Shown: in pieces, positions 5,791 to 42,860 of the stretch
Layout: every line of letters starts with the position of its first letter
Numbering within the stretch: the first letter of the stretch is position 1
Sequence record: MZ501070
Length of the DNA: 44,295 nt
Strand: one strand, 5' to 3'
Source: Escherichia phage GeorgBuechner
Position numbers and translations under genes: made by a program
The notes under the pieces: generated by a model
The model's database searches: none
What the model was told of the DNA's origin: nothing
What the model saw: the letters and a program-made list of their open reading frames with translations, nothing else

Positions 5791-5813
5791 TGCAACCAAT
5801 ATATGCAACCAAT
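5791..5813. promoter_or_regulatory. Tandem pair of TGCAACCAAT motifs in divergent intergenic region
   Basis: TGCAACCAAT at 5791-5800 and 5804-5813; on the minus strand reads ATTGGTTGCA x2 directly upstream of the SD of gene 5004..5768. Confidence 0.5.
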
Positions 5814-5916
5814 ACGAGGATTGCAAGCGAATTTTGCGATTATTTTTATCGCTGATAATATTAGAAGCGTGAAGTCGAGCGGGTGGCCCGCTCTGCCACA
5901 ATCCCAGGGGGATAGC

Positions 5917-6621
5917 ATGAAACTTACTAAAGCAGAATATGACGCGTTGCCGGAAGGTATGAAGGCGCTTTTTGTTGCCGATGGCGACGGGTATAAATCA
6001 ACGTTCATGACCGCAGAAGAAGTACAGGCGGAGATCAAGGGTCTGAAAGACAACAACGCGAAGCTGGTGAGCGAGAAGAAAGCAGAAGCTGAACGCCGCG
6101 CCGAAGCAGAGCGCCTTGCGAAAGAGAAAGAGGAAGCCGCCGCGCGCAAAAATGGCGACCTCGAAGCGATCGATAAGTCCTGGAAAGATAAGTTTGCGAA
6201 ACACGAAGCAGACACATCGGGAAAAATCGAAGCCTACCGCAAGCAGATCCACGATCTCACCATCGGCAGCGCTGCCAAAGACCTGGCATCGAAGCTGTTC
6301 GGTAAGAATGCGGGAATCATGCAACGTCACGTTATGGACCGCCTCACTCTGGAGGACGGCGAAGACGGCAGCTTGAAAGTGCGTGTATTGCAGGATGGCA
6401 AACCATCCGCGCTGACTATGGAAGAGCTTGAAAAAGAGTTCCGTAATAACGCCGATTTTGCATCCGTCCTGGCTGGCACGCCAGCCGGTGGCGCGCCTAG
6501 CAAACCGACGCAGGTTGTCGAAGATGTGAAGTCGAAAATCACTATGGGCCACAGCTTCGGTATCACTGACCTTACGAAACAGGCAGGTGAAATCATCGCG
6601 AAGATGGGCGACGACGAGTAA
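5917..6621 (+). CDS. Head scaffolding protein (putative)
   Basis: 234 aa, strongly charged and coiled-coil-like (AEAERRAEAERLAKEKEEAAARK), directly upstream of major capsid gene; SD AGGGGGA before ATG 5917; an in-frame upstream ATG at 5803 lies inside the motif and is not preferred. Confidence 0.6.
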   Translation: MKLTKAEYDALPEGMKALFVADGDGYKSTFMTAEEVQAEIKGLKDNNAKLVSEKKAEAERRAEAERLAKEKEEAAARKNGDLEAIDKSWKDKFAKHEADTSGKIEAYRKQIHDLTIGSAAKDLASKLFGKNAGIMQRHVMDRLTLEDGEDGSLKVRVLQDGKPSALTMEELEKEFRNNADFASVLAGTPAGGAPSKPTQVVEDVKSKITMGHSFGITDLTKQAGEIIAKMGDDE

Positions 6622-6718
6622 GCAGATTGCCCGCTTTCGCGGGCAATTTTGCGAGCGCGTAAATCTAAGGTAACATTAACGTCACTGGGCGAATGCTCAC
6701 AACTCAAAGGATTTCGAT

Positions 6719-7813
6719 ATGTCTTTAACAGTGTTCCAGCGTAAACTCGTTACCGCGGTTACGCAAATGATCCCCGACAACCTGAACGTTTTCAACGCCG
6801 CCGCCAATGGCGCTGTTGTTCTCGGTACTGGTGAAGTGCTGAAGGACGTTATTGAGAAAATGTCCGTAGGCTTGATCGCCAACCTCGTTACCGACCGTAA
6901 CGCCTACGCCCCCGTCGGCACTCCGGCGACCGCGAAAGTGCTGGCGCGTATGCTAACCAACTCGGTTAACCTTTCCGCAAAAGTGGGTCCGGTAGCAATC
7001 ACTAAGGCTATGATGGCTAAGATCGAAACCAACGTTAACAGCGTTGCGGCTGAGATTGCGGCACAGGCTACTCAAGCGATTATGCTGCACTACCTGAAAG
7101 CTGGTATCGGCGCAAGTAAAGCGGCGATCGAAAGCAACGCAGCGGCAAAATACACCCAACCGGCGCGCGTTGACGGCGTTGGCGGTCGTACCTTCCCGAC
7201 CCTGGCAGACTTCCCGCTGGCGGCTTCTAAGTTCGGCGATCAGGCGTCTTTGATTAAGTCCTGGTTTATGGACGGCGTTACCTGGGCAAACTTCATTGCG
7301 TACCAGGCACTCCCTTCCGCTGAACAGGTATTCGCAATTGGCGATCTCCAGGTAATGGGTGATGGCCTGGGCCGTCGCTTCATTATCTCCGATGCCGCTG
7401 CCGATGCTATGGGCGCGGGTAACATGCTGGGTCTGGTCCCTGGCGCGGTTGCAGTTACCACCAACGGCCTCGATATGCTGGCGCAGGAGAAAGGCGGTAA
7501 CGAGAACATCGAACGCTGGTGGCAGGGCGAGTTCGACTTCAACGTGGCTGTTAAAGGCTACCGTCTGAAGGCGTCCGCTCGTACCCCGATCGAAGGTGTG
7601 CGCTCGTTCAAACTGGACGATATTACCACTTCCGCTAACTGGGAACTGGACCAGGGCCAGGTAGACAACGCACCGGCAACCGTTCAGGATGTTGGCGGCG
7701 ATAGCGATACTAAAGGCCGTCGTAAGACCCAGGCCGCACAGGCAGTGCCTACCCGTCACATCAAGGAAACCGCTGGCGTACTGGTTACGCTGACTGCGAC
7801 CACCGCGTCTTAA
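6719..7813 (+). CDS. Major capsid protein
   Basis: 364 aa ORF after scaffold, followed by strong terminator; position and size typical of a major capsid protein. Confidence 0.75.
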   Translation: MSLTVFQRKLVTAVTQMIPDNLNVFNAAANGAVVLGTGEVLKDVIEKMSVGLIANLVTDRNAYAPVGTPATAKVLARMLTNSVNLSAKVGPVAITKAMMAKIETNVNSVAAEIAAQATQAIMLHYLKAGIGASKAAIESNAAAKYTQPARVDGVGGRTFPTLADFPLAASKFGDQASLIKSWFMDGVTWANFIAYQALPSAEQVFAIGDLQVMGDGLGRRFIISDAAADAMGAGNMLGLVPGAVAVTTNGLDMLAQEKGGNENIERWWQGEFDFNVAVKGYRLKASARTPIEGVRSFKLDDITTSANWELDQGQVDNAPATVQDVGGDSDTKGRRKTQAAQAVPTRHIKETAGVLVTLTATTAS

Positions 7814-7831
7814 TCGACGCACATCCCAAAT

Positions 7832-7857
7832 GGGCGGGCTTATGCCCGCCTTTTTTA
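7832..7857 (+). terminator. Rho-independent terminator after major capsid gene
   Basis: GGCGGGC-ttat-GCCCGCC followed by TTTTTT. Confidence 0.7.
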
Positions 7858-7871
7858 TAGGAGTGAATCTA

Positions 7872-8372
7872 ATGTATGGCGACCCGCAAACCTTTGTCGA
7901 TTATGCCGCCGCGCGAGGCGTTGAAGTCACGTTGGGAGATGCAACGCGACACCTTACCATCGTCAATGACTTCCTTAACGGCATCAACTGGATCGGCGAA
8001 CAGGCGGATCAGACTGGAGTAGACGCATGGCCCCGCATCAATTACCCATCGGACGGGAAACCGGTGCGCGACACGCTAACCGAAGTCGTGGAGGTAGTGC
8101 CTGTCGGGCAAATCGTAGACTTTGCATCAACCCCAGCTGCCGTTGAGCAAGCTGTTTACCGGCTGGCGCTGTTGGTGGCGGACGAGATCGATATTTCTCC
8201 GGTCGGCGATGGTAAAGAGACTATCCGCGAAACGGTCGGCCCGATCACGATGGAATATGACCCGGCGTCGATTGGTAGCGGGGTGTCGTTCCCGTGGTGG
8301 GATGGCTTGTTAGGGCACTGGGTTGATTCTGGCGGCAACGCCGCAGGCAATTTCGACGTATTCAGGGGGTAA
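7872..8372 (+). CDS. Hypothetical structural protein (head-tail joining region)
   Basis: 166 aa from ATG 7872 (MYGDPQTF) with SD GGAG; the track start at 7830 overlaps the terminator; first gene after capsid terminator. Confidence 0.45.
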   Translation: MYGDPQTFVDYAAARGVEVTLGDATRHLTIVNDFLNGINWIGEQADQTGVDAWPRINYPSDGKPVRDTLTEVVEVVPVGQIVDFASTPAAVEQAVYRLALLVADEIDISPVGDGKETIRETVGPITMEYDPASIGSGVSFPWWDGLLGHWVDSGGNAAGNFDVFRG

Positions 8373-8373
8373 T

Positions 8374-8490
8374 ATGAATCCTGCATTACTCGCGGCGATA
8401 ATCGCCGCCAACGCTAAACGGCAGCCAGAACAACCGGAGCCAGAACCAGTACCACCGGCACAGGAGAGTGAAGAAGATGGCGGGCTTTAA
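8374..8490 (+). CDS. Possible small ORF (38 aa), not in the ORF track
   Basis: ATG 8374 preceded by AGGGGG SD; Ala-rich N-terminal half, Pro/Glu-rich C-terminal half; overlaps start of next gene. Confidence 0.25.
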   Translation: MNPALLAAIIAANAKRQPEQPEPEPVPPAQESEEDGGL

Positions 8491-8830
8491 TTACGCAGGA
8501 TTAAAGCGGAAAGTGAATCCGCTGATTAAAAAATTCGGCATGACCGTTAAGGTTACGCGTCCGGGATCGGTTGACCGTGTAGACGGCGACGAAGTGGTAA
8601 TCCCGCCAACGTCGTTTGACGTCATCGGTCTTCGCGAGGAGTACAAGCCTAGCGAGATCGACGGAACGAGGATCGTTGCCGGTGATGTGAAGTTTTTATG
8701 TCGGGCGGTTGAGCAATTGCGGGTGGGCGACCTGGTTAACCTGAACGGCACTGACTACCGGGTCGTCAACCCTAACCCACTACAACCGGCTGGCACTACC
8801 ATGCTGTTTCAACTACAGCTAAGGGGCTAA
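8477..8830 (+). CDS. Putative head-tail adaptor/connector protein
   Basis: 117 aa from ATG 8477 with SD AGGAGAG (track starts at GTG 8468); position between capsid and tail genes. Confidence 0.4.
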   Translation: MAGFNYAGLKRKVNPLIKKFGMTVKVTRPGSVDRVDGDEVVIPPTSFDVIGLREEYKPSEIDGTRIVAGDVKFLCRAVEQLRVGDLVNLNGTDYRVVNPNPLQPAGTTMLFQLQLRG

Positions 8831-8831
8831 C

Positions 8832-9425
8832 GTGGCTGAAGTCTACTCATTCGCCGCCACTATTGCTACGTGGGTGGATAAGACGAAGGAGAACAACGAT
8901 AAGGCGGTGCGGGCGTACGGGATGCAAATACTCGGACGCCTTATTGAGATCTCCCCGGTGGGCGACCCTCGCCGGTGGAAGATTAACAAGGCTTATGCAA
9001 TGGCCCGCCAGCACGCGAACAAGGTGAACGCAGCACAGCGCCGCAAGAATGGCGGCAAACTGAAGCGCGGGCAGAAGAAGCACGCCAGTGTGCTCGTCTC
9101 ATTCAAAACTAAAAATGGCAACGTCACGTTCCGCCAGCGTGGCTGGGCCGCGAAGAATTACACCGGCGGACGCTTCCGGGGAAACTGGCAGGTGACGTTC
9201 GACCGCCCTGCTGTCGGCGCTATTGACCGCGTGGACAAGGCCGGAACGGCAACATTAGCCGCGGGGCGTGAAGTGCTGGCGCATTACGATTCCGGTGAAT
9301 ACGGGTCGATCTGGTTTACTAACAATGTACCGTATGCCCAGCGACTGGAATATGGCTGGAGTAAACAAGCGCCGTCGGGGATTGTTCGCGTCGTAGCGGC
9401 AGAAATTAATTCGAAGGTGAAATAA
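8832..9425 (+). CDS. Putative neck / head closure protein
   Basis: 197 aa, GTG start with SD AAGGGG; gene order in head-tail joining block. Confidence 0.4.
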   Translation: MAEVYSFAATIATWVDKTKENNDKAVRAYGMQILGRLIEISPVGDPRRWKINKAYAMARQHANKVNAAQRRKNGGKLKRGQKKHASVLVSFKTKNGNVTFRQRGWAAKNYTGGRFRGNWQVTFDRPAVGAIDRVDKAGTATLAAGREVLAHYDSGEYGSIWFTNNVPYAQRLEYGWSKQAPSGIVRVVAAEINSKVK

Positions 9426-9847
9426 TGAGCAATACTCTAATCCGCAAGGCGCTTAACAGCGTAGTAGAAGAATTATCGGTTAGCCTGAGCACTAGCACGC
9501 GCCCGATAAAGGTTAACTGGGAGAACGTGAGCGGCGACCACGCAAACGGCAGCGGTGTCTACCTGGAACCATATCTGCTTCCGGCCCCTACCCAGTTTGT
9601 GGGCTTCCAGCAGAAGGGCCGGATCTATGCAGGCGTGTATCAGATTGCCGTGGTATTTCCTGCGGGCACGGGCACACAGTATGCGAGCGAACTGGCGGAC
9701 GCCATTGCGACGTCAGACAAGTGGCAGGCCGTAAGGCTTACCGGCGCTGCATTCCAGCTTCAGGACGCGCCATACACCAGTTCAGTGATTGAGGATGTTG
9801 ACCGCGCCCGCATCGTGGTTACAGTGCCCTATTCCTGTTGTGCCTGA
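9425..9847 (+). CDS. Putative tail terminator / tail completion protein
   Basis: 140 aa ORF immediately upstream of major tail protein; ATGA-type overlap with preceding gene. Confidence 0.45.
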   Translation: MSNTLIRKALNSVVEELSVSLSTSTRPIKVNWENVSGDHANGSGVYLEPYLLPAPTQFVGFQQKGRIYAGVYQIAVVFPAGTGTQYASELADAIATSDKWQAVRLTGAAFQLQDAPYTSSVIEDVDRARIVVTVPYSCCA

Positions 9848-9908
9848 TTTGGCGCAATTCTGCGCGTGCTGTATCATTAAACCGTATATCTAAACAGGAG
9901 CGTTCATT

Positions 9909-10634
9909 ATGGGTTATCAACTTCCTAACGGGTCCAGCGTGCAGATCGGATCCGTATTGGGTGCAGGCATCGCAGTTACGGCAGCGACCAACGCCGCGGC
10001 GTCAATCTCCGATCTTACGAAAGGCTGCGTTATTACCTGTGCGGCTTCGCATGGTCTGGTTGTTGGCGACGTTGTTATGTTCACTAAAACCCCGTGGGTC
10101 CGAGCGCTGAAACGCGCCTTTATCGTGGGTAAAGTAGCCGAGAACGACGTGACGCTGGCGCGCTTCGATACTCAAGACGTAACCAAATACCCGACCGGTG
10201 CTTTCGGCGTAGGAACACCGGGTGAGGTGGTGAAGGTGTCGAGCTTTATCGACTTCCCGTTTATCACTAACGTTGGTGTGTCGGGTGGCGACCAGCAGAC
10301 CACCACCTTCCAGCCGTTGCAGGTGAATGCCGCGATCAGTCTGAACACCACGAAAAACCCGTTGGTCCAGACCTACACTTTCACCCACGACGAAGAAGAC
10401 CCGATCCGCCCGATTCTGGAAGACCTGGACGACACACAGAAAACCACTGTGATTAAGTTCACCAACCCGGCAGCGGCAAGCGGCAAAGGTGAGATCCGCA
10501 TTTACCCGGCTAAGGTGACTTTCCAGAAGATTCCGTCCGCTGAAGTAAACAACGTGGAAACAGTACAAGCCACTCTGACCTTGCAGTCTGATATGGTTAT
10601 CTACCGTAAGGATCTGGTCGAGGAATTGTCTTGA
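9909..10634 (+). CDS. Major tail (tube) protein
   Basis: 241 aa ORF preceding tail assembly chaperones and tape measure; followed by terminator. Confidence 0.75.
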   Translation: MGYQLPNGSSVQIGSVLGAGIAVTAATNAAASISDLTKGCVITCAASHGLVVGDVVMFTKTPWVRALKRAFIVGKVAENDVTLARFDTQDVTKYPTGAFGVGTPGEVVKVSSFIDFPFITNVGVSGGDQQTTTFQPLQVNAAISLNTTKNPLVQTYTFTHDEEDPIRPILEDLDDTQKTTVIKFTNPAAASGKGEIRIYPAKVTFQKIPSAEVNNVETVQATLTLQSDMVIYRKDLVEELS

Positions 10635-10664
10635 TTTGGTCGCTTAAATAGCGAGTGTTAATAT

Positions 10665-10688
10665 GGGGCCAGCACGGCCCCTTTTTTA
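10665..10688 (+). terminator. Rho-independent terminator after major tail gene
   Basis: GGGGCC-agcac-GGCCCC followed by TTTTTT. Confidence 0.7.
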
Positions 10689-10703
10689 TTGGAGAATACT
10701 ACA

Positions 10704-11066
10704 ATGGCTAAAGCACCACTCTTCACACTTGACCCTAAGCCAACCTTTAAGCTGCCGATTGAGATCCCGCGCCCTGGCGAGAACGAACCGGGCAAGATGA
10801 CGTTTACCGTCCGCCACCGCCCGATCGACGAATTTTCGCAAACCATGCAGGAAACTGAACGAAAGCTATCGGAATATGACGACAATGACCCGGACGGCTT
10901 TAACGTTATGGTCGAGGCCATCATGCACGTCGCAGAAGGCTGGAATCTGCCGGACGAATTTAACGCGGAGAACGTCCGCCGCCTGGTGGTCAACTATCCA
11001 CGCGCGTTCGGTGTGTTCCACACGTCGTACTATCTCGAACTGATGGGGTTGCGTGAAAAAAACTAA
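10704..11066 (+). CDS. Tail assembly chaperone (gpG-like), zero-frame product
   Basis: 120 aa from ATG 10704 with SD GGAG; acidic; ends at TAA 11064-11066 just after an A AAA AAC slippery heptamer. Confidence 0.7.
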   Translation: MAKAPLFTLDPKPTFKLPIEIPRPGENEPGKMTFTVRHRPIDEFSQTMQETERKLSEYDDNDPDGFNVMVEAIMHVAEGWNLPDEFNAENVRRLVVNYPRAFGVFHTSYYLELMGLREKN

Positions 11067-11383
11067 TTGAGGCGGCGCGACGCTTTTATGGCCCGCCGCC
11101 ACCCTCCGAAGATTTAGCCGCAAGTTTATGGGGTGCGGCCCCCGAAGATGTTTGTCCGCCTGTTGCGCTGTGGCCTGACAACGCGAAGGTAGTCGCAGTC
11201 TTCACAGATTGCTCCACGCAATGGCGCACCGGATTTGGTGGCGCATACGGCATAGACTACGGCGTGCTGGAGTGGCTATTTAAGATGCACGGTATCGAAA
11301 ACGAGCAGCGTGCGTTTAGAGATATCAAGCTAATGGAGCGAATCGCGCTTGATGAAATGGCGCAGCAGAACCCCGCACAATGA
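10704..11383 (+). CDS. Tail assembly chaperone frameshift product (gpGT-like), -1 programmed ribosomal frameshift at 11057-11063
   Basis: -1 frame is open from the slippery site A_AAA_AAC to TGA 11381-11383 (about 107 further codons, KKLIEAARRFYGPPPPSEDL...); conserved arrangement upstream of tape measure genes. Confidence 0.6.
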
Positions 11384-11384
11384 A

Positions 11385-11418
11385 GCGGGACAAAACGGGA
11401 CGTCCCGTTTTGTCCCGC
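11385..11418. repeat. 34 bp perfect palindrome GCGGGACAAAACGGGAC|GTCCCGTTTTGTCCCGC
   Basis: Read directly from sequence; an imperfect second copy lies at about 11462-11498; each is followed by a TGCATACCTAYTCA...TGCATAAACT segment. Confidence 0.8.
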
Positions 11419-11702: not shown

Positions 11703-11765
11703 GATTCGTTTTAAAATCGCTGATACAATGTCAATCGGCAACTGCATAAAAAAGGGGACTGCATA

Positions 11766-21847: not shown

Positions 21848-21878
21848 GGTATCATCCCCTATATTTGGTTGAGTTTTA

Positions 21879-21906
21879 GTATTACACCGCTCAATCAAGA
21901 ATGCAA
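21879..21906 (-). promoter_or_regulatory. Candidate sigma70-type promoter for the lipoprotein gene
   Basis: Minus strand reads TTGCAT - 16 nt - TAATAC about 30 nt upstream of the ATG; the -35 overlaps an ATTGGTTGCA motif. Confidence 0.35.
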
Positions 21907-21911
21907 CCAAT
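21902..21911. promoter_or_regulatory. TGCAACCAAT motif immediately upstream of the tail fibre SD
   Basis: aTGCAACCAATttACGAGGAtttagctATG; motif 17 nt from the fibre start codon. Confidence 0.5.
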
Positions 21912-24897: not shown

Positions 24898-24950
24898 GAT
24901 GTTTTTCCTTTTTAGTTGGGGGCGGTATTGCCCCCAACGAGTTAACTATA

Positions 24951-24988
24951 TTGCAACCAACCTATTGGTTGCAAGTGAATTTTGCAAC
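24951..24988. promoter_or_regulatory. Inverted-repeat motif TTGCAACCAA-ccta-TTGGTTGCAA followed by conserved TTGCAAGTGAATTTTGCAAC element
   Basis: Perfect 10 bp arms; the downstream 20-mer matches 5821-5840 (TTGCAAGCGAATTTTGCGAT) at 17/20; on the minus strand TTGCAA-18 nt-TATAGT could act as a promoter for gene 24376..24897. Confidence 0.45.
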
Positions 24989-26476: not shown

Positions 26477-26530
26477 CGTGTTGTCTCCAGGTATTAAAAA
26501 GGGCGTCCAAACCGGACACCCTTAATGTAC

Positions 26531-26557
26531 TGCAACCAATCTAATTATGCAACCAAT
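26531..26557. promoter_or_regulatory. Tandem pair of TGCAACCAAT motifs between minus-strand genes
   Basis: TGCAACCAAT at 26531-26540 and 26548-26557; on the minus strand followed by an imperfect hairpin plus T-run and the SD of gene 26234..26476. Confidence 0.5.
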
Positions 26558-29449: not shown

Positions 29450-29489
29450 TTCTAAAATCCTCGATAGTGCTAACCGGCACACTATACCG

Positions 29490-29768
29490 CTACGCGACCA
29501 ATTCAGCAACCAATAAATCACAGTCGGCTATGTTGTCGATAACGCGAACGTCAGCACCGCGGCGGGCCATTCGCTCATGTTCACGTACCTGGTGCGGCTT
29601 TGGTTTTCCTCCGGGGCGCTTCACTTCTACGAATACCACTTTGCCGTTTATGATTATAATCAGGTCGGGCGCGCCTGAGCGCCCCTCCCATATCACCTTA
29701 CGGCAGAATCCGCCAACCGCTTTCACCAGCTTCATCAGGTGACTTTGTACCTTGCCTTCTGGTGTCAT
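29490..29768 (-). CDS. VRR-NUC domain nuclease
   Basis: 92 aa; GAPDLIIIINGKVVFVEVKRPGGKPKPHQ matches the D ... E-V-K core of VRR-NUC proteins; start overlaps polymerase stop. Confidence 0.65.
   Translation of the reverse strand: MTPEGKVQSHLMKLVKAVGGFCRKVIWEGRSGAPDLIIIINGKVVFVEVKRPGGKPKPHQVREHERMARRGADVRVIDNIADCDLLVAELVA
29495..29514. promoter_or_regulatory. GCGACCAAT / GCAACCAAT motif pair at the 3' end of the VRR-NUC gene
   Basis: GCGACCAATtcaGCAACCAAT overlapping the last codons of 29490..29768. Confidence 0.35.
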
Positions 29769-33019: not shown

Positions 33020-33076
33020 TTTCCAATTCCTCATTTTCACATGTATCGGGGTTATTGGAAGCCACCCCGTTCGGCT

Positions 33077-33100
33077 TGGTTGCCAATTTACTTGGTTGCG
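33077..33100. promoter_or_regulatory. Pair of TTGGTTGC motifs upstream of SSB-like gene
   Basis: TTGGTTGCC at 33077-33085 and TTGGTTGCG at 33092-33100. Confidence 0.45.
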
Positions 33101-33109
33101 CCTAAGCGG

Positions 33110-33352
33110 TCAAGCATTTTCGTTAAAAAGATTTCTGGTCACGTAGTTGGTCGCGTTCTCGATCCAGCTTAACGGCGGGCGGTCGATGTTCTTCTCCACC
33201 CATTCTACGGCAGCGTCGCTATAACCGTCGTCCAGCCATTTGGTTGGATGGCGAATCATCCAGGCCACCATTAAGACGCCTTGCACGCAATGCAGGATAA
33301 AGCCCAGCGCGCCGATCAAAAACATCAATAAGATTGCGAATACTTTATTCAT
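33110..33352 (-). CDS. Small membrane protein
   Basis: 80 aa; N-terminal TM segments AILLMFLIGALGFILHCVQGVLMVAWMI; SD ACGAGGA. Confidence 0.45.
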   Translation of the reverse strand: MNKVFAILLMFLIGALGFILHCVQGVLMVAWMIRHPTKWLDDGYSDAAVEWVEKNIDRPPLSWIENATNYVTRNLFNENA

Positions 33353-35978: not shown

Positions 35979-36008
35979 ATAATAGATTGGTTGCAGGATG
36001 GGCGTCAA
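35979..36008 (-). promoter_or_regulatory. Candidate leftward early promoter
   Basis: Minus strand TTGACG - 18 nt - TATTAT; the spacer contains TGCAACCAAT; about 190 nt upstream of the first leftward gene. Confidence 0.4.
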
Positions 36009-36154: not shown

Positions 36155-36185
36155 CGTTGGCCATTAACCAACTGAGGGCAGAGCA

Positions 36186-36515
36186 ATGAATGTAAACGAC
36201 GCAATCGAAATGTTAACGAAGACTGTTTGCAGTGAGACAAGCCGGTCATGGGCATATACCGATGCCGTGGGGGCGGTGTTATTTGAAATCGAACGACTGC
36301 GGCTTACCGAAAAAGAATTGCGCGCGAAGCTGGAATTACTCAACGGTACGGCAGCCAGCAAGCTGCAAAAGCACAATGAAGAAATGGAAGAATACAAAAA
36401 ACAGGTTATCCGTTTGCGCGAGGAGGGAAAGTCATGGGCGATGATCGCTGAGCTAACCGGAATTAATCAGAGCACCGTGCGCTCATGGGTACGCAATAAT
36501 AAAACTTCTAAGTAA
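36186..36515 (+). CDS. Putative transcriptional regulator with C-terminal helix-turn-helix
   Basis: 109 aa; C-terminal KSWAMIAELTGINQSTVRSWVRN is HTH-like; central coiled-coil-like segment; first gene of rightward operon. Confidence 0.5.
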   Translation: MNVNDAIEMLTKTVCSETSRSWAYTDAVGAVLFEIERLRLTEKELRAKLELLNGTAASKLQKHNEEMEEYKKQVIRLREEGKSWAMIAELTGINQSTVRSWVRNNKTSK

Positions 36516-36525: not shown

Positions 36526-38790
36526 ATGAGCTTAATTAAATTTGCGGTAACACGACCCGCTAAAAAAGGCGAAAAAGCCAGGGCGGAAAACTTCCAGATG
36601 ACAACCGATGAGTTTTTCGAATTTATCAATGATGCGAAAGAAATCTCCTCGGTGCATATCAACAAGACGGAAGATAAAGCCGAGTATGCGCGCCGCAAGC
36701 GTAAGGCCGATGGGATTGTGGCTTATACTCGTGACGGCTTACGTCGCAAGACCAGTGCGGTGGACCGCTCGATCCTGTTCTTCGATATAGACCGTACCGA
36801 CACCCGCACCTTACGCCGCTGCCGTAAGGCGTTCATCGACGCGGGGCTGGAACACGTATTTCACACCACTACCGGCGACCGCCACCCGCTGAAAGGCGGC
36901 ACGCGTTGCGCCCGTTTCCTGGTGCTCACCGATAGGCCTGTACCTGCTGAAGACCTGGGCCGCGTCCAGTATGCACTATTACACCAACTGGGCCTGTCAG
37001 ATGTGGACTTCGATGATTGTACGAAAGACACAAACCGCCTTATGTACCTGCCTCACCAGCAATCGGTTGTCAAGTGTCACTACGGCAAACGTGCCCGCGT
37101 CCGTCGTCTGCTTCGCCTGGCGGATAAGCTGGGAGTGGAAAAAGAGGAAGTACGACGCGAACTGACCCAGGGCGATGACGGCGTGGCGGACGGTATTCTG
37201 GATTGGTGCTTCCAGGCAGGATTCGAACCGCTGTCGTCCGGTCGTGGTTATGAAGTACCGTGCCCGAACGAACACCTGCACAGTGGTGAAGGGTCCACCG
37301 CAATCATGGTTAAGGATGGCGAGATCCGTTTCAAGTGTATGCACACCGGCAACGAGTGTTGCTCGGAACTGAACAGACACCAGCACCTGGCGCTACGTCT
37401 TATCGGGATCCCGGACCACCTGAACGTCGAACCGCACAACATGTCACGTAAGCAAATCGCCGCCATCCTCCCTGGACTGGACGACGAGGAAGTGGAATCG
37501 TGCTATGCGCATATCGTTGATGCGGTCGGAGACGGCGACGAGTACGGCGTATGTACCGACGCTGACCTGGATAACGAACCGGTCGCACTGTTCAGTAAGC
37601 ACGACCCGATCATAGAAGGCCTGGTCAACTTCAAATCGACCTGGTATATGGCTGGCGAATCGAACATCGGTAAATCGTTCTACGTGCTGGGGCAAATGGG
37701 TGCGGTTGCCGCGGGGATTCCGTTCGGCGGTGCGAAGGTCGTCCAGTCCCATTGCTTCTATTTCGACGCGGAAGGTGGCGAAGCCTCCAACCAGCGTAAG
37801 GAAGCATTGCAGATCAAATACGAGCACGACCTCGACAAGCTGCACATTATCGATCTGCAATCACGCGGCTGGGATATCACCAGCAAATCCGGCTTGCGTG
37901 AAGTTATCAGCTTCATCAACCGCACCGCTAACGGCGAACCGGTTGGCCTGGTGGCGTTCGACTCACTCAACCAGACGGTTGCGCTGCGGTCCGCCGATGC
38001 CAAACCGTTCGACGAGAACAACGCCAGCGATATGGGCGAAGTGGTCAAGGCGCTGAAGGCCATCGCGGAAAATACAGGCGGCAGTGCGGGCGTTATCCAC
38101 CACCCGGCGAAGGGTGCAAACGGCAGCAGATCTCCCCGTGGGTCCGGCGCGCTGCATGGCGCTGTCGATTCTGCGTTCTTCCTGGAGCAACCGGACGACA
38201 ATCAGCCGGGCCAATTGAACCTGTATCACGAAAAGGCACGTAACGGCATCAAGCAAGCGCCACGCGGATTCGTCCTGCTCAAGTGCAAGGTTAAGGTGGA
38301 TCTCCGCAAGTCCGAAGCGTTCGAGTCACACCAGTCCACCAGCACCGGGCCTGACTTCGGCGATGTGGTTGCCGGTTGGGACGTCAAGCCAATTGCATCC
38401 ACACCACGCGACGAGACTCTGTACCTCGTACCGGTCGCCCTGGCACCGTTCGCCATCGAACAGGCGAAGGCCGCGGGCAAAGCAGCAGTTAAGGAAGAGA
38501 ACGCAGCAGGACCGCGCAACGAAAAAGAGAAAGTGCTTTATGCGGCGCTGGAAAAACTGATGGAAGATAACCCGGACCATACCGGATTCAGCAAATCGGC
38601 AATTGTCCGCCAGGCTGGGCTTGCGAAAGGTGGCACATCGACGAAGGCAATTGACGATATGGTCGAGCGCGGAGTGCTAGGTTTTTATACCGATCCGCAC
38701 ACCGGGGCCATCTATGGGTCGTCGAATATCGTCATTAAAACGAATATACCAATCACGCTTTCTGCGACCGATGACGATTTAAAAGATTAA
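36526..38790 (+). CDS. DNA primase/helicase-like replication protein with P-loop ATPase domain
   Basis: 754 aa; Walker A GESNIGKS and Walker B-like VAFDSL in the central region; large N-terminal domain of primase type by position and size. Confidence 0.65.
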   Translation: MSLIKFAVTRPAKKGEKARAENFQMTTDEFFEFINDAKEISSVHINKTEDKAEYARRKRKADGIVAYTRDGLRRKTSAVDRSILFFDIDRTDTRTLRRCRKAFIDAGLEHVFHTTTGDRHPLKGGTRCARFLVLTDRPVPAEDLGRVQYALLHQLGLSDVDFDDCTKDTNRLMYLPHQQSVVKCHYGKRARVRRLLRLADKLGVEKEEVRRELTQGDDGVADGILDWCFQAGFEPLSSGRGYEVPCPNEHLHSGEGSTAIMVKDGEIRFKCMHTGNECCSELNRHQHLALRLIGIPDHLNVEPHNMSRKQIAAILPGLDDEEVESCYAHIVDAVGDGDEYGVCTDADLDNEPVALFSKHDPIIEGLVNFKSTWYMAGESNIGKSFYVLGQMGAVAAGIPFGGAKVVQSHCFYFDAEGGEASNQRKEALQIKYEHDLDKLHIIDLQSRGWDITSKSGLREVISFINRTANGEPVGLVAFDSLNQTVALRSADAKPFDENNASDMGEVVKALKAIAENTGGSAGVIHHPAKGANGSRSPRGSGALHGAVDSAFFLEQPDDNQPGQLNLYHEKARNGIKQAPRGFVLLKCKVKVDLRKSEAFESHQSTSTGPDFGDVVAGWDVKPIASTPRDETLYLVPVALAPFAIEQAKAAGKAAVKEENAAGPRNEKEKVLYAALEKLMEDNPDHTGFSKSAIVRQAGLAKGGTSTKAIDDMVERGVLGFYTDPHTGAIYGSSNIVIKTNIPITLSATDDDLKD

Positions 38791-38865
38791 ATGCTGCGCG
38801 CATTGGTTGCCGATATGGGGATTCCCATATCGCTAAAAGATTAAATCTTGCGCGCATTGGTTGCC
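38779..38865. repeat. 32 bp direct repeat x2 flanking a palindrome, overlapping the primase stop
   Basis: TAAAAGATTAAATGCTGCGCGCATTGGTTGCC and TAAAAGATTAAATCTTGCGCGCATTGGTTGCC (2 mismatches) with GATATGGGgattCCCATATC between them; a third ATTGGTTGCC at 38891-38900. Confidence 0.8.
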
Positions 38866-38937
38866 ATTTTGAGTGTTTTTAGCTGGTCGTATTGGTTGCC
38901 GTGTAGTGTAAATATAATGCATAGTTATGCAGTTTTA

Positions 38938-39112
38938 GTGCATAAAGTAAGCGGGACAAAAAGCGGGACAAACAAGGGGCGGGACAAAGCGGGACAGCAC
39001 CCCCGTCCCGCCCCGGATGGCGCGGCTTCCAGAGGAGCGGGACAGGCGGGACAAACCCCAGTCTTTCAGACTAGACGGGGGTCAATGGCCCCCCTCGTCT
39101 GAGACTGAATAA
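38938..39112. repeat. Copy B of the duplicated ~175 bp GCGGGACA-iteron plus hairpin element
   Basis: Near-identical to 11528..11702 with a diverged central ~40 bp; ends in the same imperfect hairpin. Confidence 0.8.
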
Positions 39113-39171
39113 AATCCGGGGATTGCAAAATACACGGCAGCATGATGCGAAGCGCTGTCGTTGGTGAACTA

Positions 39172-39303
39172 GGCAACCAATGCGAGTTGCATTATGCTGA
39201 GTGAAAATGCAGTTTGCAGCCACAGCAGATAGCGATCAACTTTTTCATACGCATGATTAATATTGGTTGCATTCAGCCTGGCACCCTGCTAGATTGGTTG
39301 CAC
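39172..39303. promoter_or_regulatory. Cluster of three GCAACCAAT / ATTGGTTGCA motifs upstream of gene 39326
   Basis: GGCAACCAAT 39172-39181, ATTGGTTGCA 39262-39271, ATTGGTTGCAC 39294-39303 followed by CACCAACGAGAGGA and ATG. Confidence 0.5.
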
Positions 39304-39325
39304 ACCAACGAGAGGACCAAACAAA

Positions 39326-39805
39326 ATGAAATTTCCAGTAACCATCAAAGACGGTAAATCAACTATCACCTTCACCAGCAACGACCAGGGCACCTATGAA
39401 AGCGGGGCGACTTGCATGTCTACCCTGGACGATGTGATGATTCGTGTTAATTCCGGTAAAGCCTCGATTGTTGACGACAACACTAAGAAGGACCGAACAA
39501 TGAGAGCACTAATCTGGAATTACTCACTGGCCCTGGCAAAGCTGAACGAAGCGAAGGCGCTGAACGGCAACGTAGACCGTGCGCGCCAGTTTGCGACACT
39601 GGCACACCAGTCAATCATGTGTGCGCTAGACGATATGGACGCCAGCATGGATGGCCTGGGTCCGCTGCGTAAGGCAATCCATGAATACGCGCTGGCATTC
39701 TCCCGTGAGCGCCTGGCTTATCGCTTCGGTATTGGCGAGACGGCAGTGACAAACGTCGCCCGGATTAAAGCCCAGCGCGAACTATTCGCCCAGCTTGCGA
39801 AATAA
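39326..39805 (+). CDS. Hypothetical protein
   Basis: 159 aa; SD GAGAGGA; upstream leader nearly identical to that of minus-strand gene 5004..5768. Confidence 0.5.
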   Translation: MKFPVTIKDGKSTITFTSNDQGTYESGATCMSTLDDVMIRVNSGKASIVDDNTKKDRTMRALIWNYSLALAKLNEAKALNGNVDRARQFATLAHQSIMCALDDMDASMDGLGPLRKAIHEYALAFSRERLAYRFGIGETAVTNVARIKAQRELFAQLAK

Positions 39806-39814
39806 GGGGCCAAA

Positions 39815-40084
39815 ATGAGCCGTAGGCGCGCAAAACAGCTTTCGTGGAGCATCCCACTGCATTGCATACGAATATGGGCTAAGAATGCGGTTGAGGGCGA
39901 ATCGGTATTCTGGTGCTATCGCGACGATGTGAAGCCGTTGACGCAGACTCGCTACTTGCACCAGTTCGCAGCACAACACGATTTCAGGGTGCGGACTTCC
40001 TTGCAACCAATGGGAATACGTATTACATTACGCCGGAAGCCCGCCGTTGAGCGGGCAGGCAAACACTGGAGACTGAGCAAATGA
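39815..40084 (+). CDS. Hypothetical basic protein
   Basis: 89 aa, Arg/Lys-rich; SD AAGGGG. Confidence 0.45.
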   Translation: MSRRRAKQLSWSIPLHCIRIWAKNAVEGESVFWCYRDDVKPLTQTRYLHQFAAQHDFRVRTSLQPMGIRITLRRKPAVERAGKHWRLSK

Positions 40085-40233
40085 CACCAATGCAAAGGGC
40101 ACTAATGGCGGGATTCTCGCAGAAGTTTATTTCAGTAGACGCCTGCATAGCTGATTATGAGATGGACGGCATCGCTACGGTATGCGATGGCGACTATAAG
40201 ACTGTTGACGAGATTGAGGAGACTGAGCAATGA
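40081..40233 (+). CDS. Possible small acidic protein (50 aa)
   Basis: ATG 40081 within repeated junction GGAGACTGAGCAAATGA; ends in the same junction sequence at 40216-40233; not in the ORF track. Confidence 0.3.
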   Translation: MTPMQRALMAGFSQKFISVDACIADYEMDGIATVCDGDYKTVDEIEETEQ

Positions 40234-40784
40234 GATTACTATTCCGCCGCAAATCAGACGGGCGCATACTGAAGCCGATCCAGACCCTGGATTCCTACGT
40301 CCGCTTGCACCACGCGGCAAGCGATCGGGTATTCCGCGCATCGAAGGGCACATTGCCGCAGTTCTTCGAAGTCCTCACACACGATATCGAGCGGGGCGAT
40401 GTTCTGCGTGATATTCGCGACGGGCAATTGTGGGTCGTGGAGCACACCCACCGGCACGGCTTGCGGTTGAAGTCCGGCATCTTGCTAAAGGGTATGACGT
40501 ACTTCGGACTAATCAACTACGAGCGAGTGGGCCGCAAATACAGCCTTCGCAAACACCAGCAGCATGAGCGCGTGGAGTTCCGCAAGTCGCAGCCCGCGTA
40601 TGCCACCTACGACGCGAGCAAAGTGCAGGAGCCGATCCGCCAGGCCACGCGTGAGATAGTCAATCGCTTTGATGCCGTGACGAATGCACAGCGCCAGGCG
40701 CGGGAATACGGTGTGGGATTTATCCGTGTCGAACCAGACGGCAGCATGAAGGCCATCGACCCGCGCTCGGTGATTCTGAAATGA
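40230..40784 (+). CDS. Hypothetical protein
   Basis: 184 aa ORF, ATGA-coupled to the upstream small ORF. Confidence 0.5.
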   Translation: MRLLFRRKSDGRILKPIQTLDSYVRLHHAASDRVFRASKGTLPQFFEVLTHDIERGDVLRDIRDGQLWVVEHTHRHGLRLKSGILLKGMTYFGLINYERVGRKYSLRKHQQHERVEFRKSQPAYATYDASKVQEPIRQATREIVNRFDAVTNAQRQAREYGVGFIRVEPDGSMKAIDPRSVILK

Positions 40785-40927
40785 GTGCGTCTATCCGTGA
40801 TATGCTCATGCACAACCGCTTTGAGATAGGCGGTCGGGTGTTTCGCAATTACTTCGTGGCGCGTGCATGGGCGCGCCATATTGGCAAACCGGAAGGGGCA
40901 ATTCGATGCTATACGTCTTCGCGGTAG
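40781..40927 (+). CDS. Possible small protein (48 aa)
   Basis: ATGA overlap with preceding gene; not in the ORF track. Confidence 0.25.
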   Translation: MSASIRDMLMHNRFEIGGRVFRNYFVARAWARHIGKPEGAIRCYTSSR

Positions 40928-41007
40928 TATGTGGCGGTAGTCTGGCGGCCCTGGTGCTGTTGGCGTCGGTTATTAGTCTGGTTAAATACCTATGGGGCAG
41001 ATTATGA
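40906..41007 (+). CDS. Possible single-pass membrane peptide (33 aa)
   Basis: MLYVFAVVCGGSLAALVLLASVISLVKYLWGRL; stop overlaps next start as ATGA. Confidence 0.3.
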   Translation: MLYVFAVVCGGSLAALVLLASVISLVKYLWGRL

Positions 41008-41291
41008 TTCATGATGTGATTTATTGGTTTGGTTTGATCTGCGGGCTATGCCTGCTTACCGCGGTGCTGTTGGGCATCCTGATGTTCGTCGTATGGCCTG
41101 CAGTGGAAGCCGCCAGTATTACCCGCATGACGTTCGAGGTATACAAGCGCCGCGGGATCACGGAGCACCCGACCAGGTTGCGCATGTGGTGGCTGTGGTA
41201 TCGGGATATGATAGGCGGGCGAACATTCGAGGCCGTCCGGTCGAGTGGATGGGAGTGGAAAGGCGTCGGCAAGTGGTCCATTTTCGATTAA
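41004..41291 (+). CDS. Small membrane protein
   Basis: 95 aa from ATG 41004 (track start 40992); N-terminal TM IYWFGLICGLCLLTAVLLGILMFVVW; Trp-rich C-terminal part. Confidence 0.45.
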   Translation: MIHDVIYWFGLICGLCLLTAVLLGILMFVVWPAVEAASITRMTFEVYKRRGITEHPTRLRMWWLWYRDMIGGRTFEAVRSSGWEWKGVGKWSIFD

Positions 41292-41310
41292 TTATGCAAG
41301 CGTGATATAG

Positions 41311-41343
41311 TCCCAGTGAGATAAAACTTACTGGGACTTTTTT
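41311..41343 (+). terminator. Stem-loop plus T-run immediately upstream of the first lysis-cassette gene
   Basis: TCCCAGT-12 nt loop-ACTGGGA followed by CTTTTTT and then ATG 41344; preceded by TGaTATAGT extended -10-like element at 41303-41311. Confidence 0.5.
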
Positions 41344-41634
41344 ATGGATAAGCTAAACGAGTGGTTATTCGCCCTCGCGTGTCTGGCTGGCGGCTTCGTA
41401 GGCGCACGCATTCATGGCGAGGCTACGAAAGGGCCGCTAAACTTCGTTTTATATATCGTAGTTGGCTTCCTGTGTGCCATATTTGGTGCGCCAGCTATCG
41501 CCGAGTGGGCAGGCTTATCTGGCGAGCGCACTGTCGCCGGTTTGGGCTTCGTAACTGCAATCTTCTGGATGCCAATAGCCGCCCGGATCAGGGAGACTAT
41601 TGAGTCGTTCCGACTTCCGGGGGGCGCAAAATGA
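41344..41634 (+). CDS. Holin-like membrane protein (three predicted TM segments)
   Basis: 96 aa; hydrophobic stretches WLFALACLAGGFVGA, FVLYIVVGFLCAIFGAPAIA, GLGFVTAIFWMPIAA; positioned two genes upstream of endolysin. Confidence 0.45.
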   Translation: MDKLNEWLFALACLAGGFVGARIHGEATKGPLNFVLYIVVGFLCAIFGAPAIAEWAGLSGERTVAGLGFVTAIFWMPIAARIRETIESFRLPGGAK

Positions 41635-41876
41635 TTATCTCCGTCCTGTTGTTTGTTATCATAGGGGCTTCGTCCCTGTTTAACGTGTATGCGCCGTCCG
41701 TCCAGGATGGCATTTTAGGCCGGGTGTTATATCTGCTAACGGCGATGATCTGCGTTATCGGATTGTTGCAAACAGGAGACGTATCTGACACCACCTGGAC
41801 CGCGTTAATCTGGCTGTTTGCATTGCGCACGCTGCGTAATGCTGTTTTGAATGGGGTAAAACATGCGATTCAGTGA
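41631..41876 (+). CDS. Holin/antiholin-like membrane protein
   Basis: 81 aa; TM stretches MIISVLLFVIIGASSLF, VLYLLTAMICVIGLL, WTALIWLFAL; overlaps endolysin start. Confidence 0.45.
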   Translation: MIISVLLFVIIGASSLFNVYAPSVQDGILGRVLYLLTAMICVIGLLQTGDVSDTTWTALIWLFALRTLRNAVLNGVKHAIQ

Positions 41877-42354
41877 CAACGGTCTACGATTTACGGCAGC
41901 ATGGGAGACGTTTAGCCCGGTGCCGTATTTCGCGACTAAGAAAGAGCAGGCCCGCGGCCTGTACACCTGGGGTTATGGTCACACTGGCACTAACCCGCCT
42001 CGAAGCATTACCCGCGCGGAAGCGCTGGAGCTACTTAAGCGCGATGTGGCGTATGCTGAGGACTGGGTGAACAAATACGCGCATAAGAGCATTAACCAGG
42101 CGCAATTCGACGCGCTGGTGGACCTGGTTATCAATGCAGGTCAAGGTCCGATCGTACCGGACCATATTGCCAATGACTTCGACGACGCGGTGCGCTTGGG
42201 CGACTGGGCAAAGGTCCGTGCTACGCTGCCACAGTTCCGCAAGCAAGGCGGGGAAGTGCTTAAGGGTCTGGTCCGTCGAGCAATCGGCAGACAGGCTTTA
42301 TTCGATGGAAAGCAGTGGGACGTTGCCGAGAAGATCGGACGTAACGCAGCATAA
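41863..42354 (+). CDS. Endolysin (GH24 lysozyme/muramidase type)
   Basis: 163 aa; N-terminal Glu region (AAWETFSP) and TWGYGHTG segment typical of T4/lambda-type lysozymes; no N-terminal signal-anchor. Confidence 0.8.
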   Translation: MRFSDNGLRFTAAWETFSPVPYFATKKEQARGLYTWGYGHTGTNPPRSITRAEALELLKRDVAYAEDWVNKYAHKSINQAQFDALVDLVINAGQGPIVPDHIANDFDDAVRLGDWAKVRATLPQFRKQGGEVLKGLVRRAIGRQALFDGKQWDVAEKIGRNAA

Positions 42355-42370
42355 TACGGGGTAACACAGT

Positions 42371-42784
42371 ATGTTAAGAAGTATTCTTGATCATAACGCC
42401 GACGCGATTGCTGCGCTGGCTAAAACAGAAGACCCAGGCGCTCGCGCTATCATCGCGGACACTATCAGCCACGCGGGGGTCTTCGACGCGAAGCTGCCTA
42501 GCCCGCCGGAAAGTAAGCCGGTGACAAGTGCCACCGTAACAATCACACCGGAATCCGCCGCAGTTGGTGCGAAGGCCGCCGCTTCTGTTGCCGTCTTGCC
42601 ATCCGACGCGACTAACAAGGCAGGGAAGTGGGTGCCGTCGAATCCGGCCTGTGCGGCAATCGATCAGACTACCGGCGAAATCACAGCCCAAACGGCAGGT
42701 AGCGCCCACATCTTTTGGGTGGCCTCCGATGGTAGCGGGGTGATAGCGTCCGCCATCTTCACCGTGACGGAAGCAGGAGAATAA
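42371..42784 (+). CDS. Hypothetical protein with possible Ig-like (Big_2-type) domain
   Basis: 137 aa; Ala/Thr/Ser-rich beta-like C-terminal half ATVTITPESAAVGAKAAASVAVLP...; followed by terminator. Confidence 0.4.
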   Translation: MLRSILDHNADAIAALAKTEDPGARAIIADTISHAGVFDAKLPSPPESKPVTSATVTITPESAAVGAKAAASVAVLPSDATNKAGKWVPSNPACAAIDQTTGEITAQTAGSAHIFWVASDGSGVIASAIFTVTEAGE

Positions 42785-42788
42785 AACC

Positions 42789-42816
42789 ACAAGCCCGGTT
42801 AATTCCGGGCTTTTTA
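42789..42816 (+). terminator. Rho-independent terminator after the lysis-region operon
   Basis: AAGCCCGG-ttaatt-CCGGGCTT followed by TTTATT. Confidence 0.7.
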
Positions 42817-42826
42817 TTGCTTGACT

Positions 42827-42860
42827 CGCAACCAATTATCAGACTATACTGCGACCAATC
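42827..42860. promoter_or_regulatory. Tandem pair CGCAACCAAT / GCGACCAAT upstream of a strong SD
   Basis: CGCAACCAATtatcagactatactGCGACCAATcaACGAGAGGAG followed by ATG 42881. Confidence 0.5.

Follow-up and report, generated by a model that had tools for sequence, protein, structure and literature searches.

A recurrent nine-base-pair motif in predicted promoter cores of Escherichia phage GeorgBuechner, a candidate operator

The DNA analyzed here, referred to throughout as the window, is the 44,295-base-pair (bp) sequence record MZ501070 of Escherichia phage GeorgBuechner, a complete Dhillonvirus genome (HK578/SO-1-like virulent E. coli siphophage) that is collinear with, and approximately 92-93% identical to, those of vB_EcoS-EE09 and Oekolampad. 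A preliminary description made from the letters alone had pointed to a motif that recurs in the control regions of this genome, and had offered three readings of it: a promoter specific to the phage, an operator to which a phage factor binds, or an element resembling a -35. We give an even chance to the reading that this motif, GCAACCAAT, is the operator of one sequence-specific DNA-binding protein, situated in the core of the sigma-70-type promoters of non-structural genes, where its occupancy would occlude RNA polymerase. The enrichment of the motif, its non-coding location, its sharp 9-bp boundaries, its positional conservation across lineages and its overlap with predicted promoters are shown directly. 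The observation itself is solid; the binder and the sign of the regulation are less so.

Scanning both strands, we found 16 exact copies of GCAACCAAT where 0.55 were expected, and no more than 3 in any of 100 dinucleotide-preserving shuffles. Allowing up to one mismatch gave 29 sites against 12.3 expected, which bears out the claim that the motif recurs above chance. Five of the one-mismatch sites (24953, 29494, 33075, 33091 and 42851) partner exact copies or each other, and these were combined with the exact copies into a motif set of 21 sites at eleven loci (Table 1). The earlier list had the right sites, with most coordinates off by one; its "17 copies" mixed exact and near copies, and it missed the one at 29494. 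It had also presented 24951/24965 as a perfect inverted pair, while the two copies (GCAACCAAC and GCAACCAAT) match at only 8 of 9 positions.

Non-coding DNA makes up 7.1% of the window, in intergenic regions of 40-220 bp. Thirteen of the 16 exact copies lie wholly within it (binomial p = 5e-13), as do 17 of the full 21 (p = 1e-16). The others are the intragenic copy at 40003, the pair 29494/29506, which falls within the final codons of the VRR-NUC gene, and the copy at 24964, at the end of a truncated gene remnant; the preliminary description had recognized 29505 and 40003 as exceptions. The copies are located 16-55 nucleotides (nt) upstream of start codons, within the 15-60 nt originally estimated, and they are mostly paired; with respect to the gene that follows they may point either way, as had likewise been noted. 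Hairpins and CGAGGA-type ribosome-binding sites occur 3' of several copies, but the ACGAGGA seen after the copy at 5805 is not conserved in other genomes.

When the 21 sites were aligned, the information content was high across exactly nine positions and at background outside both ends; beyond the nine, only a weak T at -1, present in 12 of 21 sites, and immediately 5' a faint TAnnnT could be made out. GCAACCAAT is asymmetric, without internal dyad symmetry, and the start-to-start spacings of neighboring copies (11, 12, 13, 16, 17, 23, 31, 35 and 54 bp) show no helical phasing. Taken together, these properties characterize a site recognized by a protein in monomer fashion, and not a two-block promoter or a structured RNA.

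A consensus promoter scan placed motif copies inside 6 of approximately 29 promoter-like matches, and we also applied a sigma-70 weight matrix to every position on both strands. At ten motif loci the best promoter near the motif ranked among the top 0.01-0.08% of genome positions and was directed at the downstream gene, and at all ten of these strongly predicted promoters the copies fall within -40 to +3, numbered relative to the predicted transcription start of each promoter. Only the origin-region copies 38802, 38856 and 39173 have no strong predicted promoter. Copies in either orientation cover the whole stretch that polymerase contacts: some coincide with the -35, others with the spacer or with the -10 and start. 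The promoters that carry them have -35 hexamers of the form TTGACx or TTGCAx, good -10 boxes and 17-18 bp spacing. The motif is found at three of the three divergent strand-switch regions. Behind the predicted motif promoters are the Nmad5 and cor-like genes, the leftward replication/recombination operon (at five points), a small open reading frame (ORF) operon and the phosphoesterase gene, so that all of them drive non-structural genes. Given that the promoters are strong by sequence and that the sites lie on the -35, spacer, -10 and start, occlusion is the most economical mechanism.

Table 1. Motif copies, predicted promoters and other features of the window. Gene blocks were transferred from Oekolampad by tblastn; motif positions are relative to the predicted start.
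Feature	Coordinates	Strand	Position and remarks
R1 copy, exact	5792..5800	+	-9..-1 (inverted) of leftward promoter; divergent gp07/scaffold control region
R1 copy, exact	5805..5813	+	-22..-14 (inverted) of leftward promoter; missing in JL1
R1 predicted promoter TTGCAA-17-TATATT	5798..5826	-	for Nmad5 gene (5768 to 5004); score 11.2, top 0.01% of genome positions
R2 copy, exact	21903..21911	+	-40..-32 (inverted) of leftward promoter; directly after AAGAAT on + strand; divergent cor-like/tail-fibre region
R2 predicted promoter TTGCAT-17-AATACT	21878..21906	-	cor-like lipoprotein gene; -35 from motif; score 7.8
R3 copy GCAACCAAC, one mismatch	24953..24961	+	-23..-15, inverted
R3 copy, exact	24964..24972	-	-34..-26, same orientation; TTGCAA = -35
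R3 predicted promoter TTGCAA-18-TATAGT	24945..24974	-	followed by 5' hairpin and gene 24897 to 24376
R4 copy, exact	26532..26540	+	-23..-15, inverted
R4 copy, exact	26549..26557	+	-40..-32, inverted; gives -35 TTGCAT
R4 predicted promoter TTGCAT-17-TACATT	26524..26552	-	-10 is TATATT in most relatives
R5 copy GCGACCAAT, one mismatch	29494..29502	+	-28..-20, inverted; in last codons of VRR-NUC gene
R5 copy, exact	29506..29514	+	-40..-32, inverted; gives -35 TTGCTG
R5 predicted promoter TTGCTG-17-TATAGT	29481..29509	-	Lar-like gene and helicase operon; eiAU 18115/18147 has same architecture
R6 copy GCAACCAAG, one mismatch	33075..33083	-	-5..+3
R6 copy GCAACCAAG, one mismatch	33091..33099	-	-21..-13
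R6 predicted promoter TTGACC-17-TAAATT	33085..33113	-	single-stranded-DNA-binding protein/DNA polymerase operon; score 12.9
R7 copy, exact	35986..35994	-	-22..-14; 9-mer invariant, spacer 5' of copy varies among genomes
R7 predicted promoter TTGACG-18-TATTAT	35979..36008	-	leftward replication/recombination operon
R8 copy, exact	38802..38810	-	left flank of GCGGGACA iteron array
R8 copy, exact	38856..38864	-	
R8 copy, exact	38891..38899	-	overlaps TTGGTT-15-TATAAT on + strand
R8 copy, exact	39173..39181	+	right of iterons
R8c copy, exact	39262..39270	-	-40..-32, inverted; gives -35 TTGCAT
R8c copy, exact	39293..39301	-	-9..-1, inverted
R8c predicted promoter TTGCAT-17-TAGATT	39267..39295	+	small-gene operon from 39326; score 10.1
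Intragenic predicted promoter TTGCAA-17-TACATT	40001..40029	+	contains copy 40003-40011 (-33..-25); upstream of gene 40081
R9 copy, exact	42828..42836	+	-29..-21
R9 copy GCGACCAAT, one mismatch	42851..42859	+	-6..+2
R9 predicted promoter TTGACT-18-TATACT	42821..42850	+	26-amino-acid ORF and helix-turn-helix phosphoesterase gene; score 13.5, best among motif-associated promoters
Degenerate copy TTAACCAAC (weak)	36164..36172	+	downstream of helix-turn-helix gene promoter
Candidate binder	36186..36515	+	109-amino-acid protein with coiled coil and C-terminal sigma-region-4/resolvase-type helix-turn-helix
Terminase to spanins	1-4990	+	
Scaffold to tail	5917-21609	+	
Tail fibre	21928-23730	+	
Replication, recombination and modification genes	35962 down to 23758	-	
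Helix-turn-helix protein, helicase-primase, small ORFs, lysis genes, phosphoesterase	36186-44165	+	

Some copies do supply part of the promoter. The inverted copy, ATTGGTTGCAt, provides the -35 (TTGCAT or TTGCTG) in four window promoters and in five promoters of relatives: in the window it forms TTGCAT/TTGCTG-17-TAnnnT at 26549, 29506 and 39262, and TTGCAT-17-AATACT at 21903. The forward copy preceded by T forms TTGCAA at 24964 and 40003. The -35-like element of the preliminary description is accurate for a subset, the remaining copies being placed within the spacer or over the -10/+1. Since position is variable and both orientations are used, a promoter element of fixed geometry is excluded. 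A phage-specific promoter is not supported: neither a polymerase nor a sigma factor encoded by the phage was found, and good -35 and -10 boxes are already in place. Of the options originally offered, only the operator fits all copies.

The same geometry bears on whether the 9-mer could be a positive promoter-specificity element, on which a phage factor recruits or redirects the host RNA polymerase in the manner of T4 MotA/AsiA or of a class II activator, so that the motif would mark activated promoters. The T4 MotA box is likewise an asymmetric nine-bp box in the promoters of a virulent coliphage, and MotA is a small phage protein that acts with the host sigma-70 polymerase. The most common placement of the motif (inverted, -40..-32, overlapping the -35) recurs nine times in three lineages, the helix-turn-helix (HTH) of a candidate binder, the protein encoded at 36186, resembles sigma-70 region 4, which reads the -35, and the R1 pair is about -55 to -76 from the motif-free rightward scaffold promoter, a position workable for activators. 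On the other hand, activator boxes need a fixed geometry, the MotA box being fixed at about -30 in place of the -35, whereas the motif ranges from -40 to +3 in both orientations, next to -35 boxes, good -10 boxes, 17-18 bp spacers and top promoter ranks. Copies on the -10 or start (R1, R6, R8c and R9) are incompatible with activation, and scans of the small ORFs with Pfam, PHROG and NCBIfam returned no MotA, AsiA, sigma or RNA polymerase gene. We consider activation quite unlikely.

Predicted non-coding promoters that lack the motif precede the terminase (44220), scaffold (5856), tail (9872, 10659, 11712 and 20594) and holin (41306) genes, the HTH gene and a small RNA-like unit, and they are conserved across genomes. 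A TGn extended -10 is present in six of these nine; among nine motif promoters only one has it (Fisher p = 0.05). On this basis, which consists wholly of predicted promoters, there may be two classes: -35-dependent early/middle promoters equipped with the operator, and -35-independent late promoters that escape it. We also observed that extended -10-like boxes (TGnTAnnnT) abut terminator hairpins at 10656-10690, 20591-20620 and 41303-41345 (+ strand) and at 26529-26490 (- strand), an arrangement conserved across genomes. A start approximately 7 nt downstream would fall just beyond the 5' arm of the stem, so that upstream transcripts would end there and new ones would read on.

Comparison with homologous phages, as suggested in the preliminary description, found motif sites at conserved positions in eight other Dhillonvirus genomes. 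In control-region alignments the 9-mer and the -35/-10 hexamers are invariant and the adjoining spacers vary freely (e.g. at R7 and R9), with 76% of motif columns invariant versus 57% of others (p = 1.5e-4). The intragenic copy at 40003 is kept even where the surrounding coding sequence differs, and LM40P1 has two copies at the R2 locus. Positional conservation extends to a lineage of metagenomic relatives recovered through the HTH protein (L129-L131; approximately 74-77% DNA identity, 40-81% protein identity), whose 20 kb contain 10 exact copies, against 0.23 expected, at equivalent places. At the R7-type promoter of L130 two abutting copies fill the spacer, TTGAC-GCAACCAAC-GCAACCAAT-c-TAATAT. 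The origin-flank copies in this lineage have the orientation opposite to that in the window, which argues for an orientation-independent, DNA-level function.

The motif is also present in Edwardsiella phage eiAU (genus Eiauvirus), whose helicase-primase is 45% identical to that of the window. We counted 23 copies of GCAACCAA (as GCAACCAA(C/T)), mostly GCAACCAAC, against 1.7 expected, and window-like promoter architectures at four loci; upstream of the eiAU Lar-like gene, TTGCAT-17-TATAGT has copies at -40..-32 and -8..0. The motif is absent from Hafnia phage TS33, Salmonella phage SaI_NFG_5579 and Bas75, whose helicase-primases are 34-44% identical. When viral contigs were scanned for tandem pairs, the non-Dhillonvirus matches examined were mostly in-frame coding repeats, and a pair scan of genome contigs gave, among the matches listed, scattered unrelated taxa, which is uninformative on the idea of a host factor.

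We also considered whether any dedicated factor is needed. The 9-mer could be a promoter sequence family read directly by the host sigma-70 holoenzyme, through -35-like hexamers (TTGGTT, TTGCAx) and the discriminator/start, and spread by cassette duplication. In line with this, the inverted copy gives the -35 in at least four window promoters, the T preceding 12 of the 21 copies produces the palindromic TTGCAA, and several copies directly follow the -10 hexamer, where the start would fall in AAT. Nevertheless, copies in the spacer (-29..-13), which have no base-specific polymerase contacts, are equally invariant, as is the ATTGG part, which is outside any hexamer; the flanks differ between sites, hence no cassette duplication took place; and copies cluster in origin-like regions without good promoters. 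This explanation is very unlikely.

A signal at the RNA level, with GCAACCAAU in the 5' leader as the target of a small RNA, a nuclease or a translational factor, is more improbable still. Some copies do lie just 5' of CGAGGA ribosome-binding sites (R2 and R9), and in the window AUUGGUUAGC is present within a candidate small RNA (36078 to 36015, - strand). However, both orientations relative to the downstream gene occur and flip between lineages at the same locus, most copies are upstream of the predicted start, and Rfam gave no match anywhere in the window at the gathering threshold. Pairing of the candidate small RNA with the motif was rejected, the AUUGGUUAGC stretch not being conserved in L130. 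This candidate small RNA, which itself has no Rfam match, belongs to a self-contained unit (36113-36013, - strand) with the predicted promoter TTGAAA-17-TGtAATAAT, an approximately 60-nt transcript with a conserved CTCATTGTCT core, and a strong hairpin with a T10 terminator. The terminator stem is retained in L130 with a different sequence, and the 36-amino-acid ORF annotated here in Oekolampad starts upstream of the promoter.

Six copies (38802-39301) flank an array of GCGGGACA iterons just 3' of the helicase-primase gene, at the presumed replication origin. The window contains 16 GCGGGACA(AA) repeats, with clusters of 8 and 6 exact copies at 11385-11636 and 38951-39056 that include inverted copies forming long hairpins. 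These clusters, which look like replication iterons, correspond to "regions A and B" in the GenBank record of Sodalis phage SO-1, where only the two repeat regions are annotated. In eiAU, ATCGCCCCG-type repeats occupy the equivalent places. By analogy with P4 alpha, the poorly conserved, winged-helix-like C-terminal part of the helicase-primase (amino acids ~640-754) is a candidate binder of the G-rich iterons. Given that it diverges alongside them (GCGGGACA here, ATCGCCCCG in eiAU), it is a better candidate for the iterons than for the 9-mer.

We also asked whether the 9-mer serves primarily as a DnaA-box-like site for an origin-associated protein, with the promoter copies secondary and coupling transcription to replication, a proposal that overlaps with the operator reading. 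Besides the six copies around the window's array, eiAU has 10 copies in the non-coding region after its helicase-primase gene and 6 in its second repeat region, among AT-rich stretches. In layout the motif resembles the DnaA boxes of bacterial chromosomes, these also being asymmetric 9-bp sites found in either orientation, irregularly spaced, at the origin and in promoters, DnaA serving in the latter as a transcription factor. Against this, 15 of the 21 window copies are elsewhere, in promoters, and the second iteron cluster (11385-11636) has none; the helicase-primase C-terminal part, 22% identical to that of eiAU, tracks the iterons and not the invariant 9-mer. The DnaA box itself (TTATCCACA) is unrelated to GCAACCAAT in sequence, and there is no DnaA-like gene in the phage. 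We judge a primarily replicative role unlikely. A broader proposal, which we rate as rather unlikely, is that one factor, either a protein conserved between the Escherichia and Edwardsiella hosts or an unrecognised phage protein, reads the 9-bp boxes at the origin and in every early/middle promoter core in two phage genera. The same occupancy would then drive both origin firing and the early-to-late switch, from which late genes would escape via -35-independent extended -10 promoters.

Functionally, the arrangement is closest to the C1 operators of P1 and the gp71 stoperators of L5. C1 maintains lysogeny through asymmetric 17-bp operators scattered, singly or in pairs, at many promoters, so that one phage protein controls the operons of P1, and the dispersed asymmetric sites described here would be alike in this. 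They differ in being 9 bp long and in that copies also flank origin-like iterons; P1 is temperate, and in the window there are no lysogeny genes and no C1 homolog was found. The L5 stoperators are 13 bp, asymmetric, present in approximately 20-30 copies and bound by a monomeric HTH repressor, and they share with the motif a location mostly in short intergenic regions and conservation across a phage cluster. Unlike the motif, which is found in both orientations and nearly always within predicted core promoters, the stoperators of this temperate phage have a single orientation and also stop elongation within operons. A switch of the phi29 p4 or lambda cI type is comparable in so far as the R1 geometry would allow one divergent promoter to be repressed while the other is spared or helped, but those proteins are dimers on inverted repeats at one or two loci, and here monomer-type sites occur at about ten. 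Given the unrelated sequences and proteins, the use of both orientations and the virulent phage, the motif is a member of none of the P1, L5 and DnaA families.

What might read the 9-mer? The preliminary description had proposed the HTH protein encoded at 36186, and this remains the best phage-encoded candidate, though a tentative one. The model of the protein has two short helices and then a long one, ahead of a three-helix HTH at the C-terminus that scored as HTH_23/sigma-70 region 4/resolvase-like; a fold search found generic small HTH domains only (resolvase, LuxR, ECF sigma region 4), none with an E-value below 0.4. The HTH is nearly invariant (N94, S96, T97, R99, W101) across alleles with unrelated, swapped N-terminal halves, and the protein is 85% identical in L130, compared with 68% for the helicase-primase. 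The family is found only in Dhillonvirus-like phages and is co-conserved with the motif in Dhillonvirus and in the L129/L130 lineage. In addition, its gene has a predicted promoter, TTGACA-17-TAGTTT, which is followed by the degenerate copy TTAACCAAC, at a position where L130 (9979) and L129 (194) have exact GCAACCAAT; a motif copy after the gene's own promoter is the pattern expected of an autoregulated regulator.

Another phage protein and a host factor are both possible binders, each of which we think less probable than the 36186 protein, and it is unlikely that the motif has no dedicated binder. The 9-mer is unchanged over a distance at which the iterons changed, a stability that would be consistent with a highly conserved binder, which might come from the host. 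To our knowledge, however, neither the 9-mer nor its arrangement matches the sites of host proteins such as PdhR and other GntR-type regulators (TTGGT..ACCAA palindromes), CytR (GTTGCATT), NtrC (half-site), IHF, DnaA or the CspA Y-box.

Several other phage candidates were rejected. The "DNA repair exonuclease/calcineurin-like phosphoesterase" encoded at 43023-44165 has an N-terminal GerE/resolvase-like HTH (amino acids 14-46), but it was undetected in eiAU and in the sequenced 20 kb of L130, the syntenic position included, both of which carry the motif. The winged-helix-like domain of the helicase-primase was set aside as the least conserved part of that protein, following the diverged G-rich iterons. 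With structural proteins and one holin set aside, the phyletic pattern of the motif (present in the window, L130 and eiAU, absent from TS33) was shared only by Dam and by an HNH endonuclease, neither of which is plausible, and PHROG sharing added nothing to this search. In eiAU, the 117-amino-acid P858_54 (42365-42718, - strand) has a C-terminal resolvase-type HTH (Pfam HTH_7, E = 0.013) and an overall architecture like that of the 36186 protein, and its gene is directly behind a motif-bearing promoter within an eiAU motif cluster. It was rejected as an analog of the 36186 protein: BLASTP gave no alignment, the hhalign probability was 2.4%, and the residues of the recognition helix that putatively contact bases differ.

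We infer that the predicted promoters are real and that a protein binds the motif; its effect would be repression, and the promoters would form temporal classes. One protein would read the 9-mer, usually as two copies per promoter core between -40 and +3, and on one or two copies it would exclude host RNA polymerase by occlusion. The non-structural (early/middle) operons would thereby be shut off together or held down, while the motif-free structural and lysis promoters, mostly of the extended -10 kind, would stay active. Paired, flexibly spaced sites would suit a dimer joined by the long helix of the 36186 protein, and near the origin the copies could keep transcription from running on into the iterons, or could tie replication to the same signal.

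A number of points weigh against this operator reading and against its favored binder. The promoters are predictions, the motif itself adds to some of their scores through TTGCAx, and in intergenic regions of 40-220 bp crowding alone yields some overlap between motif and promoter. Most eiAU copies cluster in origin-like regions and not at promoters. Our search of the literature found no data on where transcription starts, on the timing of expression or on binding in any Dhillonvirus, and a virulent phage that represses about ten of its own promoters calls for a rationale. Finally, eiAU has the motif and no homolog of the 36186 protein detectable even by profile search, so this candidate, plausible as it is, is weakened and may be wrong; the corresponding locus in eiAU encodes an Xre-type HTH, as it does in TS33, which lacks the motif.

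Several further features adjoin the motif loci. An approximately 20-nt element, TTGCAAG(C/T)GAATTTTGC(G/A)A, is shared by two loci, in each case after the motif. At R1 (5820-5862) it includes the -35 of the leftward promoter; at R3 (24972-25012) it overlaps a truncated phosphatase gene remnant (24965-25135) at that remnant's 3' end. Immediately 3' of the R9 promoter is a 26-codon hydrophobic ORF (42881-42961; MARNDIWVLAIWSAAVFIGMVICELL) with a strong ribosome-binding site, which is conserved in several genomes and absent from the Oekolampad annotation. Just 3' of the intragenic promoter, 40081-40233 encodes a 50-amino-acid product starting MTPMQRALMAGFSQKFIS, which is weakly like helix 2 and helix 3 of the Xre-type HTH encoded upstream of the helicase-primase in eiAU and TS33 (tblastn E = 0.022).

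Apart from the motif, the octamer ACGGCA[AG]C occurs 55 times across the whole window (e.g. at 1430, 3759, 8418, 13425, 20436 and 38120) against approximately 3.6 expected, with 42 copies on the + strand, in three codon phases and mostly co-oriented with genes. The related words AACGGCAGC, ACGGCAAC and CGGCAACA are top k-mers also in TS33, eiAU, SaI_NFG_5579 and Bas75. One idea is that the octamer is a Chi-like or orientation-dependent signal.

In the literature on Dhillonvirus, SO-1-like phages and eiAU we found no description of this motif or of any promoter. Dhillonviruses are among the most common E. coli siphophages in collections (>150 genomes, BASEL members among them) and are being engineered for therapy. 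If the operator reading is correct, the 9-mer would be a map of about ten co-regulated promoters in a common phage genus, and the promoters would follow a two-class model in which motif-bearing, -35-dependent promoters drive non-structural genes and motif-free, extended -10 promoters drive structural and lysis genes. The 9-mer also offers a short DNA bait for isolating the regulator. That the motif persists in a sister genus with another host, where the obvious candidate regulator is missing, means that a host protein might be exploited, and the whole would represent a rare genome-wide operator system in a virulent phage.

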